DNA of 7,066 bases, taken from IMG/VR virus record IMGVR_UViG_2534682060_000010. One strand, written 5' to 3'. Below, piece by piece: positions 1,216 through 7,066 of this stretch (within the stretch, counting starts at the first letter, position 1; each line of letters opens with the position of its first letter). The notes under the pieces were generated by a model that saw nothing but the letters and a program-made list of their open reading frames with translations, did no database searches and was not told where the DNA came from. Both the position numbers and the translations under genes were made by a program. This DNA is from a virus. Its lineage: Duplodnaviria; Heunggongvirae; Uroviricota; Caudoviricetes.

Positions 1216-1415
1216 TGCTATGCGTTACCTTTGAATACCACACGGATAAAATGATTCGCTACATCTCCGACCTCCTGATTGAAGGAAACGGATTCGGTGA
1301 CATCCATAACTCAAAAGATATCTTCATTCACGCCACCAGCCCAAGCGAAACATTAAAAACAGCAGTTACAACGGAATGGTTTGAACGAAATAAAGTAGAA
1401 TTAGGCTATTGGTAG
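1215..1415 (+). CDS. Hypothetical protein, 66 aa
   Basis: TAATG overlap with the upstream gene (stop 1213-1215, start 1215-1217); GGAGG 1206-1210. No motif recognised. Confidence 0.6.
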   Translation: MLCVTFEYHTDKMIRYISDLLIEGNGFGDIHNSKDIFIHATSPSETLKTAVTTEWFERNKVELGYW

Positions 1416-1451
1416 TCCGAGACTTTAAGAGAAATTAGAAAAACAGCTTCT

Positions 1452-1571
1452 CAGACGCTCTCAATCGCATTCTAACGCAAAAAACTATCTTATTTTAGGG
1501 TGGGAATACCACTGTACAGGCTACCCCTGAAAAAGACTATTTAGCTCGTTACAGAGCGATTGAGGAGGTCT
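1452..1571. repeat. Structured repeat, copy B: left arm 1452-1482, unique 56-nt core 1483-1538 (contains palindrome CTGTACAG), right arm 1539-1571
   Basis: Same arms, order and orientation as copy A; core unrelated in sequence and length. Lies between the 66-aa gene stop and the 107-aa gene ribosome-binding site. Confidence 0.8.
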
Positions 1572-1593
1572 GGTAAAAAGGAGATTTTAGGAA

Positions 1594-1917
1594 ATGAACA
1601 ACTTCCCATTACAAATTTTCGTTGATAACGACGCCGCTCTGATGATTCAGGCTTTCACTGATGCAGGTGTGGCAATTGATTTTGACAGGCTGTTAAAGCT
1701 AGTTGCTGAGAACTCAGAAGTAATTGAAGATTTTATTCAGGGAATTGAAACTGGTGAACCACGTTTTATGTTTCCCGTTACCGACTCAAACATGAAAAGG
1801 CTTGTTATCGAAGAAACGAATAAATACAGCATTAGCCCTGAAAAATATCTCAAGGCGGCTATAGTAATTTTGTATAGCGACAGTATTTTGGTGACGGATT
1901 CGAAGGTGGTGCATTAA
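1594..1917 (+). CDS. Hypothetical acidic protein, 107 aa
   Basis: AAAAAGGAG 1575-1583 precedes ATG 1594. By my count 17 Asp+Glu against 9 Lys+Arg. No motif recognised. Confidence 0.75.
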   Translation: MNNFPLQIFVDNDAALMIQAFTDAGVAIDFDRLLKLVAENSEVIEDFIQGIETGEPRFMFPVTDSNMKRLVIEETNKYSISPEKYLKAAIVILYSDSILVTDSKVVH

Positions 1918-2456: not shown

Positions 2457-3197
2457 ATGTCTATCCGTGATGAACATGAAGCGATTGTTGATAGAAAACC
2501 TTGTGCATATGATTTGCATTTTACTGATGAAGGAGATGAGTATGCACATATGAAACCTTATCACAAAATTATTGCCAAGCTTGCAGATGAAGAGGCCAAA
2601 AAAGAAAGGCTACGAAAGATTGTTCCAGCCAATAATCTTGAATTTATCAATCCTGAGCCTCTGGAAATGACTGATGTTTGCAAGACAGAAGCTCTGATTG
2701 CACTTGAGAGGAGGTACTATCCACTACTAAAAGAGCAGCGCATCAAGCTTGATAATGCTTATGATGTTGTCAAGAACTTCGAAGAAACTCAGAAACCTTC
2801 AGAATATGATATTGAATATGAGCTTAAGACAAACCCGTTTATCTATTACGAAGGAAATTACAACAATGGTTTCGGTACAGCAAGAGAGAATGTTCCAAAA
2901 GTGCTTCAAAGTATTCCTGACGGTTTTCGATTAATAGATGTCAGACAAGCTCCACGTGGCACAGGCTCATATATCCTGATGACTAACAAAACAGACGAAG
3001 AGATTATTCAGTTGGTTGAGGCTAATTTGACTAAGCATTACTCCGATAAGCTGGACAAGTTAAAGCAAAAGCTTAAAAAAGAGCTTGATACTATGAAAGA
3101 GCTTGTTAGTGAATATGAGTCGCAGAAGAAGGTTGCTATGCAGGGTGATATTGAGCAGCTTACTAAGATTTCTCAGAAATACAGCAAAGCACTTTGA
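2457..3197 (+). CDS. Hypothetical protein, 246 aa, charged and probably coiled-coil at the C-terminus
   Basis: AGAGGTGA 2442-2449 upstream of ATG 2457; long ORF. No Walker or catalytic motif seen. Confidence 0.85.
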   Translation: MSIRDEHEAIVDRKPCAYDLHFTDEGDEYAHMKPYHKIIAKLADEEAKKERLRKIVPANNLEFINPEPLEMTDVCKTEALIALERRYYPLLKEQRIKLDNAYDVVKNFEETQKPSEYDIEYELKTNPFIYYEGNYNNGFGTARENVPKVLQSIPDGFRLIDVRQAPRGTGSYILMTNKTDEEIIQLVEANLTKHYSDKLDKLKQKLKKELDTMKELVSEYESQKKVAMQGDIEQLTKISQKYSKAL

Positions 3198-3221: not shown

Positions 3222-3431
3222 ATGTTTGAAGAACGTTTAGAGACTATTCGGTCTGTTTGTGAAAACCTAAAGTTACAAACTAAACCAGCCTTAAGAATTA
3301 AAAACAAACGTCAAGTTATCACCTTACACAAACCAAAAACACGCAAGATTCCAAAGTGGTGCATTGACCGTATTCCTTCTGATGCTCAAATCATAGGTGA
3401 AACGGAATTACATTATCTTGTCAGGCATTAA
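3222..3431 (+). CDS. Hypothetical small basic protein, 69 aa
   Basis: GAGGTG 3213-3218 upstream of ATG 3222. By my count 15 Lys+Arg against 8 Asp+Glu. Same frame as the upstream gene but separated by three in-frame stops. Confidence 0.6.
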   Translation: MFEERLETIRSVCENLKLQTKPALRIKNKRQVITLHKPKTRKIPKWCIDRIPSDAQIIGETELHYLVRH

Positions 3432-3478
3432 AAAAATTGGTTGGGTATATGAGATAGGTTCTATCGAATCTATAGTAC

Positions 3479-3519
3479 GGGAGAGATTATCGAGTGGCAT
3501 CGGTAGCTCTCCCTTTTTT
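3479..3519 (+). terminator. Intrinsic terminator
   Basis: Stem GGGAGAG (3479-3485) / CTCTCCC (3507-3513), 21-nt loop, then TTTTTT (3514-3519). Ends 20 nt before the tape-measure start codon. Confidence 0.6.
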
Positions 3520-3539
3520 GTATGAGGTGAATATGAACA

Positions 3540-5588
3540 ATGAGCAAATTTACAGTTGATAGTTTTATTGTTGAGCTAGGCTTCAATGAAAACGTTATTA
3601 AGGGACTGCAAAGAGTTGAAAAGGCAGCTTTGCAGTCAGCACAAAGAATTGAAAAGAACCTAAATAAAGGTTTCAGGATAAATACAAAACAGCTTGATAG
3701 TAATTTGACAAGTTCTTTAAAGTCAATGGAAGGAAAAATTAATAAGACCTTTGACCGTCTGGAAGCTAGAGCAAAAAATACTAAAGCTTTCCGTTTCACA
3801 AGTCAGGTTAATGATGCTATTAATCCTCCAAAACAATCAAAGCCAAGAAGAGTTACTAGTGACCGAGCTATTACAGCGGCTTATTCAGCGAATATGACCA
3901 AACTGAAAGGTCTTAACCCAATTGTCGAGAAATACATTAAGAGTCAGTTTTACGCATTAAGTAGTAAAGCTGGTCAGATGGATAACACCAAGTTTAATGA
4001 AGCCCTTGCTAAACTAAATTCAAGTGTACGAGAAGCAATCACTAAAGCCAGAGGTCATACATCCACCAGCATTAATAGTGACAAAGCAGCTAGTTCTCTT
4101 GATAGTCTGTCTTCAGCAGCATTTAGAGCAGCAGGTGCATTTATCAGCTTTCAGGCTGTACTATCCGCTTATCAGCGAGTACTGGAAGTTGGTTTACAGC
4201 GTACATCATCGGAAAGAAGTATTGATTTCGTATTCGGTGACCAAAGTACACAGGTTAAAAAGTTCATTCAGGATTTAACTCAAGTCACGGGTATGGACAC
4301 GACCGAAACACAAGCTCAGTTTGCCTCATTCGGTGCATCTGCAAAGAATACGATGGGTCTTGAAGGCTCAGAGGAATTATTTAAAAACTTAACTGGATAT
4401 GCCCGTCTAATGGGGCGTTCAGATGAGCAGATTCAAAGAGCATTAACCGCAGTATCGCAGATGGCTTCTAAGGGGCAGGTGATGTCTGAGGAGTTGAAGG
4501 GGCAATTATCTGAAGCTTTACCGGGTGCTACTCAGGCATTTGCAAAGGCTTTAGGTCTGACTGAAAAACAGCTTTTCGATAAGATGAAAAATGGTGATGT
4601 TAAAGCCTCTGATGCACTCCCTAAGTTTGCTAAAGAACTTGGTGCACAGATTAATTCAAGAGGTGGCTGGAAAGCTATTCAGGACTCTACGCAGACAATG
4701 TTAGGGAACTTAAAGAATACCTGGAATAACTCATTAACGGATATTTTCAAAGGTTCTGAAAATGGTCTGCAAGATTTTACACGAAGCTTAACAACGCTTT
4801 TAAATAGTTTAGATGGAAGTGGTAAAACATTAGGTGAAAGTCTTGGTGGCTTGATGAGTGATATGTCATATGGTATCGATAACCTGACTTATATTAGTTA
4901 CAGGGTGAGAGCGTTCTTTGATGAGGTGACATTAGCTTATCGTGGTTTAACCGATGAACAAAAGAAAGTTGTTGATGCTTTAGGTTCTGGCTTGATTAAT
5001 AGTTTAAAAGTCTTGGCTGGTGTTATTGCTGTAAATAAAGTTGTTGGTGTAACTAGAAGTATTTACGGGCTTATGACTGCTATCACAAGATTAGGTCAGG
5101 TCGCTGATACTACAGCAGATAACGTAAATAAAAAGAACGGGAAACCATCAAGGTTTAATCTTGGGAATATGCTATTAACTGGTAGTGCAATCTATGCAGG
5201 TTATGAGAGATTAGCTTCTACGCCTGAACGAATGGAAGCACAAGCTAAATTACCAGAGCTAGCTAAAGAGTCTGGACTTAAACCCGCTTTCACTATGGAT
5301 GATGTTAAAGGGTGGTTTAATAGTGCTGCCATGAATCTTGCTAACTTCCAGCATCCAGAATTAAACAACATTAAGCAAGATTCAGCATTAACGAGTGCAG
5401 ATATCCAAAGCCTGAGAGATGAAATCTCCGCTTTGAGTAAACGTATTCAGGAGCCTGTGAAAGTTTCACTTGGTGGTGAAGTTGCCATTAAACCAGATGA
5501 AACCAGCTTTATGACCTTTAGCGGTAATATCTACGACCAATACGCAGAAGCTACGCTATTAAGTTCATCATTCCCAGAAGATGATTGA
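3540..5588 (+). CDS. Phage tail tape-measure-like protein, 682 aa
   Basis: GAGGTG 3524-3529 upstream of ATG 3540. Internal segment KGQVMSEELKGQLSEALPGATQAFAKALGLTEKQLFDKMKNGDVKASDALPKFAKELG fits, from memory, the conserved tape-measure domain pattern. Long helical low-complexity N-terminal half and a hydrophobic segment LINSLKVLAGVIAVNKVVGV. Confidence is high that this is a gene, moderate for the product. Confidence 0.7.
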   Translation: MSKFTVDSFIVELGFNENVIKGLQRVEKAALQSAQRIEKNLNKGFRINTKQLDSNLTSSLKSMEGKINKTFDRLEARAKNTKAFRFTSQVNDAINPPKQSKPRRVTSDRAITAAYSANMTKLKGLNPIVEKYIKSQFYALSSKAGQMDNTKFNEALAKLNSSVREAITKARGHTSTSINSDKAASSLDSLSSAAFRAAGAFISFQAVLSAYQRVLEVGLQRTSSERSIDFVFGDQSTQVKKFIQDLTQVTGMDTTETQAQFASFGASAKNTMGLEGSEELFKNLTGYARLMGRSDEQIQRALTAVSQMASKGQVMSEELKGQLSEALPGATQAFAKALGLTEKQLFDKMKNGDVKASDALPKFAKELGAQINSRGGWKAIQDSTQTMLGNLKNTWNNSLTDIFKGSENGLQDFTRSLTTLLNSLDGSGKTLGESLGGLMSDMSYGIDNLTYISYRVRAFFDEVTLAYRGLTDEQKKVVDALGSGLINSLKVLAGVIAVNKVVGVTRSIYGLMTAITRLGQVADTTADNVNKKNGKPSRFNLGNMLLTGSAIYAGYERLASTPERMEAQAKLPELAKESGLKPAFTMDDVKGWFNSAAMNLANFQHPELNNIKQDSALTSADIQSLRDEISALSKRIQEPVKVSLGGEVAIKPDETSFMTFSGNIYDQYAEATLLSSSFPEDD

Positions 5589-5600
5589 TAATAGTCGAAT

Positions 5601-5657
5601 GCTACGTGAATAAAGCAAAGTTAATACCCACACTAAAAAATTATTTTTCACGTAGCT
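5601..5657. repeat. Perfect 10-bp inverted repeat GCTACGTGAA / TTCACGTAGC with a 37-nt spacer
   Basis: Arms at 5601-5610 and 5648-5657 are exact reverse complements; located in the AT-rich gap between the tape-measure gene and the next gene. Confidence 0.7.
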
Positions 5658-5746
5658 CACGCTTAATAGAGAAAACACTTATATATTAAAGGATTAGTTA
5701 AAAATAGTTAAAATACACTAAGCCTTTGAAATCAAAGGAGAATTTA

Positions 5747-6517
5747 ATGATTTACACTAATCAGCTTCGTTACAGTGGCAAAGATGGTGTTTACTTCCAT
5801 CTACAAGGCCAACCAGATAATTTCTTGTCACTATCAGCTACTGAGAACATGGAATTTGATAGCCCTATGATGGTTACCACTCAAAATATGCAATCAGGGC
5901 AGGCTGTCACAGATAATGTAATGCGTTCACCCAGAACAATTACTATTAGTGGTGTCGTTGTAGTTGGCTATGAAGGAAGCTTATTATTGACTCGTCAAGG
6001 GCAATTAGTAGAAAACTTCATTGATACTCTGGAAAGCTGGAGAGACCAGAAACAGATTATTTCGGTCATCTGTAAAGATGGTATCAAAATTGACGATTCC
6101 ATTATTACAAACTTTAAAGCCTCTAAAGATGTTGGAATTTCTAATGGCCTAAGAATCCAGCTAACTTTTCAGGAAATTAACTTTAAAGCTATCGTAGGGC
6201 AAACTGATATTTCATCTGCAACTGGAAAGACCGCTACCACGAATGATGGCGGTGCTACCAGTAAAAAGAACACCGGAAACACTACAACGAGCCTTGGAAG
6301 CCCTATGCTGACCTGTAAAGAGCTTTTTAGCTATTCGGCAAGTGAGTTATCAGATGAAGCGCTAAAAGCCCGTGTAACGTGCTCTAAGAGCGTTAGCGTT
6401 AAAAATGGTGAGAGCACCTTCTCAGATGCCGCTAATGAGCAAGCTTCAAAGGTGCTTAAGCCGGGTAATGCTCTGCGAAAGTACTCTGTGAACCCTAACA
6501 AGAAGGGCACTTATTGA
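5747..6517 (+). CDS. Hypothetical protein, ~256 aa; possibly a tail component by position
   Basis: AAAGGAG 5733-5739 sits 7 nt upstream of ATG 5747; the track's TTG start at 5726 lies upstream of the Shine-Dalgarno and is less likely. Placement right after a tape-measure gene suggests a distal tail protein, but I recognise no motif. Confidence 0.8.
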
Positions 6518-6522
6518 GACAT

Positions 6523-6549
6523 AAAAAGGGGCTTCATAGCCCCTGAAAA
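6523..6549 (-). terminator. Intrinsic terminator between the convergent genes, mainly serving the minus-strand gene
   Basis: Stem AGGGGCT (6527-6533) / AGCCCCT (6538-6544), 4-nt loop. On the minus strand it is followed by a U-run (complement of AAAA 6523-6526); on the plus strand it is followed by GAAAATT, so it is a poor plus-strand terminator. Confidence 0.6.
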
Positions 6550-7065
6550 TTACAGTTGATAAGCGTCAATATCCAGTAGCTCTTTATCAGCAATTTCAAA
6601 GATTGGTGACCCATCATTTAGCGGTAACGGGTTTGTAGGTATGGTGATTTCAGTGTCGTTCTGTAGCGTTACAGTTACCGAATCCTTACCCAATGTAAGC
6701 CCTTTTAGATGCTTGGACAAAATCAACTGACACTCGACACGACCCGCTTTAGTCATAAGGTCAATATCTTTAAGTTGGGGTAATCCTTTGTCACTGAGTG
6801 AGGTTTTACGCTTCAGAGTGTCGATAGTAGTTTGTATTTCTGTACGCTTCTGGTTAAGTCCCTTCACCTGTGTTTTCAACTCTGTAATATCATCCATCTC
6901 AAGAAGTAGGGCGGTAGCTTTCTTGATTCTGGCTGTGACAATTTCAACCTCATGCTGTAACGCTGCAATCTTCCTCTCTGATTCTCCATCATTCCCCACG
7001 TCAATCATTCCTAGAAAATTTTCAAGCACCCACTTATCAAACGGTTTACGCTTCAACGGTTGAAC
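6550..7065 (-). CDS. Hypothetical protein with a central coiled-coil-like segment; N-terminus probably off-window
   Basis: Minus-strand ORF ends at stop complement 6550-6552. The track starts it at a TTG (7056-7054) but the frame stays open to the window edge. Balanced composition, unlike the Ser/Phe/Cys-rich antisense ORF 6788-7063. No motif recognised. Confidence 0.75.
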   Translation of the reverse strand, partial: VQPLKRKPFDKWVLENFLGMIDVGNDGESERKIAALQHEVEIVTARIKKATALLLEMDDITELKTQVKGLNQKRTEIQTTIDTLKRKTSLSDKGLPQLKDIDLMTKAGRVECQLILSKHLKGLTLGKDSVTVTLQNDTEITIPTNPLPLNDGSPIFEIADKELLDIDAYQL

Positions 7066-7066
7066 A

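Follow-up and report, generated by a model that had tools for sequence, protein, structure and literature searches.

The window analysed here, the whole 7,066-nt stretch of the IMG/VR virus record IMGVR_UViG_2534682060_000010 (Caudoviricetes), encodes a tape measure protein (TMP) and, directly after it, a tube initiator, both homologous to tail proteins of Felixounavirus phages. It is part of a chromosomal island of ~11.5 kb, inserted by a large serine recombinase at the start codon of tonB, and this island is probably a satellite of virulent Felixounavirus phages that builds chimeric tails. The features of the window that bear most directly on this reading are:

3454–3473, + strand: module A, a small 8-bp hairpin found by folding; overlaps a promoter-like match at 3449–3476
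3479–3519, + strand: intrinsic-terminator-like hairpin with T6 (13 pairs, one bulge, 6-nt loop), ending 20 nt 5′ of the TMP ATG
3524–3529, + strand: ribosome binding site (RBS) of the TMP gene, GAGGTG, unchanged across aligned relatives
3540–5588, + strand: TMP gene, 682 aa, assigned by TMP family models and homology to PDB 9ndy_F
5586–5594, + strand: three tandem in-frame stops TGA TAA TAG (sequence gat-gat-TGA-TAA-TAG)
5601–5666, + strand: module C, an inverted repeat GCTACGTGAA (5601–5610) / TTCACGTAGC (5647–5656) with a variable 36-nt loop, then conserved TCACGCTTAA
5747–6517, + strand: tube initiator (Dit-like) gene, 256 aa, start ATG at 5747 and RBS AAGGAG at 5735–5740
6550–7066, − strand: large serine recombinase gene truncated by the window end, coding here for the C-terminal part of the 506-aa protein; phrog_95 integrase

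The 682-aa open reading frame (ORF) matched Pfam TMP_3 with an E-value of 4.9e-18 and 66 bits (cut-off 41) and TIGR02675 with a score of 55 (cut-off 21). Thirteen PHROG families were hit, 11 of them annotated as tape measure, the best being phrog_4036 (2.7e-82). Furthermore, the protein matched PDB 9ndy_F (3.4e-68), i.e., gp17 of phage Bas63, the TMP in a tail solved by cryo-EM. Judged by these matches, the product of 3540–5588 is a genuine phage tail TMP. A preliminary description of this DNA had called the gene tape-measure-like and proposed a check with hidden Markov models; its assignment is confirmed, and so are its ORF coordinates. Its remark that the protein is short for a long-tailed phage was misleading, since the homologous TMPs of the 86-kb Felixounavirus myophages have only 742–747 aa.

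The tube initiator was recognized by Pfam Dit_like (7.7e-19), phrog_3721 (4.8e-131) and PDB 9ndy_A, the tube initiator gp18 of Bas63 (2.2e-119). Bas63 gp18 forms a hexamer that adapts the trimeric hub to the tube and starts the tube, and the last 25 residues of the Bas63 TMP touch the hub and the puncturing-apparatus protein gp21 (PMC12609058). Both phage proteins thus belong to the baseplate hub, where one initiates the tail tube and the other measures it. Of the neighbours expected in a tail module, the island has the tube initiator gene downstream of the TMP gene; the two conserved genes upstream, o246 and o69, showed no similarity to the chaperones of the Felixounavirus phage HK3. That no other tail genes are evident had been stated for the upstream side, where it is true; the tube initiator gene directly downstream had gone unmentioned.

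Gene order in HK3 corresponds to that of the island: the TMP gene (747 aa) is adjacent to a gene for a 265-aa protein, and the island tube initiator is 76% identical at the amino acid level to the product of this HK3 gene. Local BLAST of a whole island against the HK3 genome returned four common segments, namely the full-length TMP, the 5′-terminal 106 nt of its gene (77% nt identity), the tube initiator, and a promoter/leader with a small ORF located outside the window. The non-coding island promoter/leader, which contains CTTGACAAGGT, is 84% identical over 63 nt to HK3 positions 28801–28861. The small ORF (66 aa) has a homolog in an unannotated region (HK3 21254–21413) of 254 records, nearly all of them Felixounavirus-type phages of Escherichia, Salmonella, Shigella and Citrobacter. 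When the window was compared with phages by megablast, only the tube initiator gene matched, with 85–90% nt identity in 212 records that are almost all Felixounavirus-type Escherichia or Salmonella phages. Gp17 and gp18 are direct homologs, encoded in the same order and with conserved N terminus and C-terminal tip of the TMP. In the phages, the two genes abut inside a 24-kb structural operon, whereas in the island a 158-nt spacer with module C lies between them, the flanking genes are non-structural and the TMP is 60–65 aa shorter. Felixounavirus phages are virulent, and the HK3 record has no integrase. The Felixounavirus-like leader lies in the island to the left of the window (L001:13334–13720) and reads leftwards to the 66-aa ORF; the two may form a sensor of helper infection.

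Full-length alignment of the island TMP with the HK3 TMP gave 28–29% amino acid identity (9e-78), and its best protein matches are Felixounavirus TMPs at ~31% identity. This divergence is unevenly distributed. The N-terminal 45 residues are helper-like (~80% identical to the phage), and the C-terminal tips resemble each other as well (...LLSSSFPEDD in the island, ...LLSSSYPEEE in the phage). The interior is diverged and, compared with the phage protein, lacks ~47 residues near the N terminus and ~43 near the C terminus. Among 39 distinct island alleles, which are 47–100% identical, TMP lengths range from 677 to 725 aa, all below the 742–747 aa of the phages, and the C-terminal third is the most variable region (residues ~497–651). 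The ratio of nonsynonymous to synonymous substitution rates (dN/dS) was 0.15–0.48 for the TMP and 0.04–0.22 for the tube initiator; this purifying selection indicates that both are maintained as proteins.

In four examined genomes, the island forms an 11.4–11.7-kb insert between yciI and tonB, flanked by yciI/kch on one side and tonB/yciA on the other. A match to the window was found in 531 of 5426 complete E. coli chromosomes (~10%) and in no plasmids; a scan of genome contigs gave only two loci. The gene order starts with a variable left part (a hypothetical gene, a Dam-like methyltransferase or a small resolvase) and a leftward 62-aa gene, and continues through o185, o92, o66, an HNH endonuclease gene that is present or absent, o107, o246, o69, TMP and tube initiator to the 506-aa large serine recombinase at the right end, on the strand opposite to the tail genes. 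The complete recombinase gene, present in L001, encodes Resolvase, Recombinase and Zn_ribbon_recom domains. Relatives, some of which have other integrases, were found in E. coli, Citrobacter and Salmonella, and the family is mosaic: two unrelated-looking serine integrases (~30% identity) and several early-gene modules surround a constant core of o107-o246-o69-TMP-tube initiator.

Searches with Pfam and PHROG and inspection of the annotated neighbourhoods revealed no capsid, terminase, portal, sheath, tube, baseplate-wedge, fibre or lysis genes in the island. Its only recognizable structural genes are those for the TMP and the tube initiator, which suggests helper dependence. RefSeq annotates likewise only a “tape measure protein” and a “phage baseplate protein” among hypothetical genes. 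PADLOC returned no defence system except an orphan methyltransferase model. The preliminary description had considered a prophage late operon, a tailocin or a satellite, and had advised to inspect the wider locus for tube, sheath, baseplate, capsid and terminase genes. No conventional tail module was found outside the window, and the tailocin hallmarks (sheath/tube, baseplate, fibres, lysis cassette) are absent from the 11.5-kb island and its flanks. These absences exclude an ordinary prophage as well as a tailocin; of the contexts offered, the satellite fits this ~11.5-kb element without virion modules.

Excised forms of the island were found as metagenome contigs that are closed circles across the recombinase junction: L013 (11,429 nt, 55-nt terminal overlap), L012 (11,680 nt, 30-nt overlap), L086 (11,485 nt, 141-nt overlap) and the dimer L032, whose 23,009 nt equal exactly 2 x 11,477 + 55 nt with identical copies. 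Two further contigs, L048 and L054, are permuted across the same junction. In all six, the recombinase gene abuts the left end of the island with no tonB, yciI or other chromosomal DNA in between, and the contigs encode identical or related proteins. The junction of L013 consists of the attR and attL sides of an integrated copy (L003), with a common 13-nt core, CAATGACCCTTGA, that contains the tonB start codon. Thus, the island possesses the integrase (a serine recombinase), the att sites (core CAATGACCCTTGA) and the circular form (L012, L013, L032, L086) of a satellite. One of the alternative left-hand module types of the family carries an O-like replication-initiator gene.

In L003, attL lies at 4540–4628 and attR at 16330–16400, the latter corresponding to a position just past the right end of the window. 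After insertion, the native upstream region of tonB stays at attL, 11.6 kb away, and island DNA with a −10-like TACAAT precedes tonB; regulation of tonB may be altered in island carriers.

The TMP gene is preceded by a hairpin with the properties of an intrinsic terminator. Its outer stem pairs GGGAGAG (3479–3485) with CTCTCCC (3507–3513), its inner stem TATCGA with TCGGTA, and T6 follows at 3514–3519. It begins 47 nt after the o69 stop codon and has a GC-rich stem and a U-tract on the same strand, 3′ of that gene. Folded alone it reaches −21.1 kcal/mol (z = −5.04 against dinucleotide shuffles), and none of 200 shuffles was as stable. A one-base bulge kept it off the list of the consensus terminator scan. 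Every one of the 64 related loci whose TMP 5′ region is intact has both hairpin and T-run. The 21 sequence variants fold individually at −16 to −24 kcal/mol and share an invariant 5′ arm, GGGAGAGATTA, while the apical stem is swapped for other complementary pairs (TATCGA/TCGGTA, TAACC/GGTTG, TAGCC/GGTTA, TCTGGAT/ATCTAGG). We relied on these individual folds, as RNAalifold counted few compensatory pairs in an alignment spoiled by indels.

The distance from T-run to ATG varies between 20 and 142 nt among the relatives, and in 30 of 64 an extra element of ~70 nt, a second copy of module C, is inserted between hairpin and RBS (e.g., L005:11780–11850). A promoter scan of the window detected no sigma-70-like site in the 20-nt gap; hence both the position of the terminator, 20 nt upstream of the start codon, and the lack of a convincing promoter in between had been described correctly. 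The only promoter-like match nearby, at 3449–3476, is weak (9/12). It was rejected as TMP promoter because it lies 5′ of the terminator and because module A, with which it overlaps, sits before or after the terminator hairpin depending on the relative (5′ of it in the window); such shifts argue against a fixed promoter role. HK3 has a similar hairpin, GGGGGAGAC...GTCTTCCCC-T6-GT (−19.7 kcal/mol), between its tube gene and the chaperone-TMP genes, and many further hairpins directly 5′ of genes. To have a terminator-like hairpin before a tail gene is therefore usual in these genomes and is no sign of antitermination in itself. The claim that expression of the TMP needs antitermination is accordingly not demonstrated: given the hairpin of HK3 and the extra element in 30/64 relatives, a leaky terminator would explain the layout equally well.

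An out-of-frame ATG located 7 nt 5′ of the TMP start opens an 8-codon ORF (MNNEQIYS, 3533–3559) that overlaps the start of the TMP gene. Paired ATGs at this position were seen again in relatives (ATGAACAATG, ATGAATG).

At the other end of the gene, the in-frame TGA-TAA-TAG at 5586–5594 is present as previously described. Among 59 relatives, 32 have a triple stop (T[GA]A-TAA-TAG in 30, TAA-TAG-TAA in two), two a double stop and 25 a single stop. We estimate that, with this base composition, chance would place two additional in-frame stops behind ~0.5% of genes. The triple stop is tied to one C-terminal module of the TMP (...SSSFPEDD) and absent from other C-terminal lineages, a co-occurrence that marks it as a lineage trait rather than a requirement. 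It is a lineage-specific 3′ end without required function.

Module C occurs between the TMP and tube initiator genes in all relatives but one. Across the family it consists of GCTACGTGAA, 34–36 nt and TYACGTAGCTCACGCTTAA, forming a 10-bp inverted repeat, and its invariant ACGTAGCTCACGCTTAA adjoins the RBS. It folds at −13.7 kcal/mol (z = −3.2). No copy exists in HK3 or in 50,697 phage records, and no sigma-70 consensus is readable, for which reasons a borrowed phage promoter was rejected. In addition, a small hairpin, CCUUUG-AAAU-CAAAGG (5723–5738; −6.5 kcal/mol, z = −2.4), covers the first four bases of the tube initiator RBS and may damp translation of the gene.

The closest parallel to the island are the PLE satellites of Vibrio cholerae, which parasitize the virulent myophage ICP1. 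PLEs encode a tail chaperone, a TMP and the baseplate hub protein BhuB with 20%, 20% and 41% identity to the respective ICP1 proteins, and TMP and BhuB replace those of ICP1 in PLE virions (PMC12987554). In PLE11, the TMP is reduced by 95 aa and the tails by 10 nm, and deletion of the PLE tmp gene cuts transduction by 96–99.9% (PMC12987554). PLEs and the island are both small chromosomal islands with a large serine recombinase and a virulent myophage as helper (presumed for the island). In both, the TMP is only weakly similar to that of the helper (20% in PLE, 29% in the island) and shorter (95 aa in PLE11, 60–65 aa here), while the hub-proximal protein encoded beside it is closer to its helper counterpart (BhuB 41%, tube initiator 76%). 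However, hosts and helpers differ, the island is smaller (11.5 kb vs ~18 kb) and no counterpart of the tail chaperone, TcaP, RepA/NixI or Rta was recognizable in it. Induction, packaging and chimeric tails have been proven for PLE, whereas they are predictions for the island, whose likeness to PLE rests on the pattern of its genes.

Other satellites share fewer traits. EPIPs, prophage satellites of Mycolicibacterium, have a serine integrase and a TMP of their own like the island, and their tail length differs from that of the helper, but they also encode a small terminase, head-tail connectors, a scaffold and a capsid protein, use a temperate helper and have longer tails (PMC12822802). P4-like satellites, PICIs and cf-PICIs are of similar size (P4: 11.6 kb), integrate and parasitize phage virion assembly, and some cf-PICIs carry putative tmp genes (PMC12987554, Extended Data Fig. 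10 legend). In contrast to these families, whose helpers are temperate, the island has no detected tyrosine integrase, and the island proteins scanned gave no Pfam or PHROG match to terS, the P4-type primase (alpha), cpm, sid, psu, delta or a capsid-portal-protease set. Tai systems (PMC11364771) and Rta of PLE11, which reside on satellites or prophages, likewise target TMP-dependent tail assembly, but these are small inhibitors unrelated to TMPs, whereas the island protein is a full-length structural homolog. In the openly searchable full-text literature, including protein accession queries (subscription-only papers lie outside this scope), there was no description of the island or of any Felixounavirus satellite. 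The principle is already known, while element, host and helper appear to be new.

On the favoured reading, infection by a Felix-O1-like virulent phage would, as PLE and ICP1 suggest by analogy, trigger excision, circularization and replication of the island. In otherwise hijacked tails, the TMP and tube initiator of the phage would then be replaced by those of the island, whose TMP has kept helper-like N-terminal 45 residues and the hub-contacting C-terminal tip. A TMP body shorter by 60–65 residues predicts tails that are ~10 nm shorter. The hairpin with T6 would act as an intrinsic terminator or attenuator that closes the o246-o69 unit, determines how much of the potentially toxic TMP is made and holds it down in uninfected cells, mirroring the hairpin of the helper 5′ of its chaperone-TMP genes. 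We are evenly balanced about the fuller proposal: a new satellite family in E. coli, Salmonella and Citrobacter that lives on virulent Felix-O1-like phages, excises from the tonB start site upon infection and swaps TMP and tube initiator to yield shorter chimeric tails, with island cis elements (hairpin, module C and a candidate ~190-nt RNA) timing both genes, i.e., an enterobacterial counterpart of PLE/ICP1.

Several points weigh against the satellite reading. Insertion sequence (IS) elements (IS2, IS100, ISEc12, IS3 family) split the TMP gene in several complete E. coli genomes. The host can thus do without the gene, which may even be a burden to it, and the island may not need it for its own maintenance either. 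Given the 76% identity to the helper protein, it is unclear why the island would need its own copy of the tube initiator. Island genes include no recognizable tail assembly chaperone, small terminase, capsid-size factor or inhibitor of the helper TMP. The circular contigs are evidence of excision but not of packaging, and no sample is known to be a virome. Felixounavirus is a putative helper, linked to the island by homology in four segments, and terminator activity of the hairpin as well as read-through are predicted.

The main rival, which we regard as unlikely, is defence by poisoning. The diverged TMP with the near-identical tube initiator would act as a dominant-negative decoy that leads to dead or missing tails, in which the island would not be transduced. 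A competitor subunit would need just such a combination of a diverged body with docking ends like those of the helper, the variable residues ~497–651 and alleles at 47–100% identity suggest an arms race, and defence through interference with tail assembly is known from the Tai systems (PMC11364771) and from Rta of PLE11 (PMC12987554). However, the known inhibitors are small and unrelated to TMPs, none being a full-length TMP homolog, and a decoy requires neither a length constrained to 677–725 aa nor purifying selection on the whole TMP_3 core. Moreover, no PADLOC defence model matches, and the TMP of PLE satellites is a structural part of their virions (PMC12987554). Poisoning is compatible with excision and replication and does not exclude the building of chimeric tails.

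A strict antitermination scheme concerns the control of the two genes. TMP and tube initiator would be silent behind an efficient terminator until an antiterminator of the phage or the island arrives, and o69 could be that factor. The strong, universally conserved hairpin and T-run with their invariant arm GGGAGAGATTA would suit this scheme, as would the promoterless 20-nt gap of the window and the behaviour of PLE, in which TMP is a late protein and the late structural proteins appear only as helper infection progresses (PMC13595925). We nevertheless consider it distinctly improbable: no antiterminator homolog was found among the window proteins by Pfam and PHROG, the HK3 hairpin-T6 before chaperone-TMP and other genes fits leaky attenuators in long operons, and the extra modules between hairpin and RBS in 30/64 relatives could carry a start signal of their own. 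A decaying Felix-O1-like or other prophage, or part of a tailocin, of which a TMP and one baseplate gene survive, might be read from the RefSeq names of the two genes among hypotheticals and from the IS insertions in some copies. This explanation is extremely improbable and already contradicted by the virulence of Felixounavirus phages and the integrase-free HK3 record, by the same 11–12-kb gene order with precise borders in dozens of loci, by circular excised forms and purifying selection on both tail genes, and by the lack of sheath, tube, fibre or lysis genes.

Satellite TMPs and chimeric tails were first demonstrated only in 2025–26, for the Vibrio PLEs. If the satellite reading is true, the strategy is no Vibrio curiosity and would occur in roughly a tenth of the complete E. 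coli genomes. Its target would be the Felixounavirus phages. These find wide use in the typing, biocontrol and therapy of Salmonella and E. coli, and the strategy could explain their strain-specific failures. The island would also offer a genetically easy system to study the choice between two tape measures, with an atomic structure of the helper tail available from Bas63. Finally, insertion parts tonB from its native promoter, with possible effects on iron uptake and on the sensitivity to TonB-dependent phages and colicins.

The remaining features of the window comprise the upstream part of the conserved core and a hairpin between the tube initiator and recombinase genes:

1594–1917, + strand: o107, 107-aa acidic protein, first gene of the core o107-o246-o69-TMP-tube initiator, in the same order in nearly all related loci
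2457–3197, + strand: o246, conserved core gene, kept in related loci
3222–3431, + strand: o69, small basic protein (ORF of the conserved core), last gene 5′ of the hairpin
6527–6544, scored as − strand terminator by the terminator scan: GC-rich hairpin between the convergent tube initiator and recombinase genes

For o107, no Pfam, PHROG, NCBIfam or PDB match was obtained, and its AlphaFold2 model (pLDDT 49.5) was too poor for a fold search. The model of o246 (pLDDT 73) shows a long-helix protein with a small alpha/beta domain and had no fold match in PDB; the label “transposase” given to this gene in some RefSeq records is supported by no family model. No family or PDB match was found for o69. 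A role of the three proteins as tail chaperones was rejected, as they had no similarity to the HK3 chaperones in BLASTP and hhalign and none to PDB sequences; specifically, o107 and o246 did not match 5IR0, the PLE tail assembly chaperone (TAC), at E <= 1.

The 540-nt spacer between o107 and o246 contains a strong sigma-70-like promoter at 2007–2035 (TTGACA-17-CATAAT with TG, 11/12). A terminator follows ~190 nt 3′ of it (2211–2238), with a second hairpin and T-run near 2318–2345. The segment ~2042–2238 is therefore a candidate small RNA of ~190 nt, and the stretch 2007–2345 is conserved in 58 related loci. Neither the window nor the island matched any Rfam family. A role analogous to that of SviR in PLE, regulation of helper tail transcripts, was rejected for the candidate, because its complementarity to the HK3 genome is only at chance level.

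Two copies of an element of ~110–130 nt (88–191 and 1447–1572) are bounded by the inverted repeat AGACGCTCTCAATCGC / GCGATTGAGGAGGTCT. The copy at 1447–1572 folds at −42 kcal/mol (z = −4.0), and both positions are kept in many relatives; an origin, an operator or a structured RNA are possibilities. Many relatives have an HNH endonuclease gene between o66 and o107 (e.g., L004:9419–9706) that is lacking at this site in the window (1415–1594), a presence/absence polymorphism typical of homing endonuclease genes. At 263–327, two strong promoter-like sites stand back to back, one on the + strand (299–327) directed to o185 and one on the − strand (292–263) directed to the leftward 62-aa gene, an arrangement that resembles a repressor/early-operon switch.

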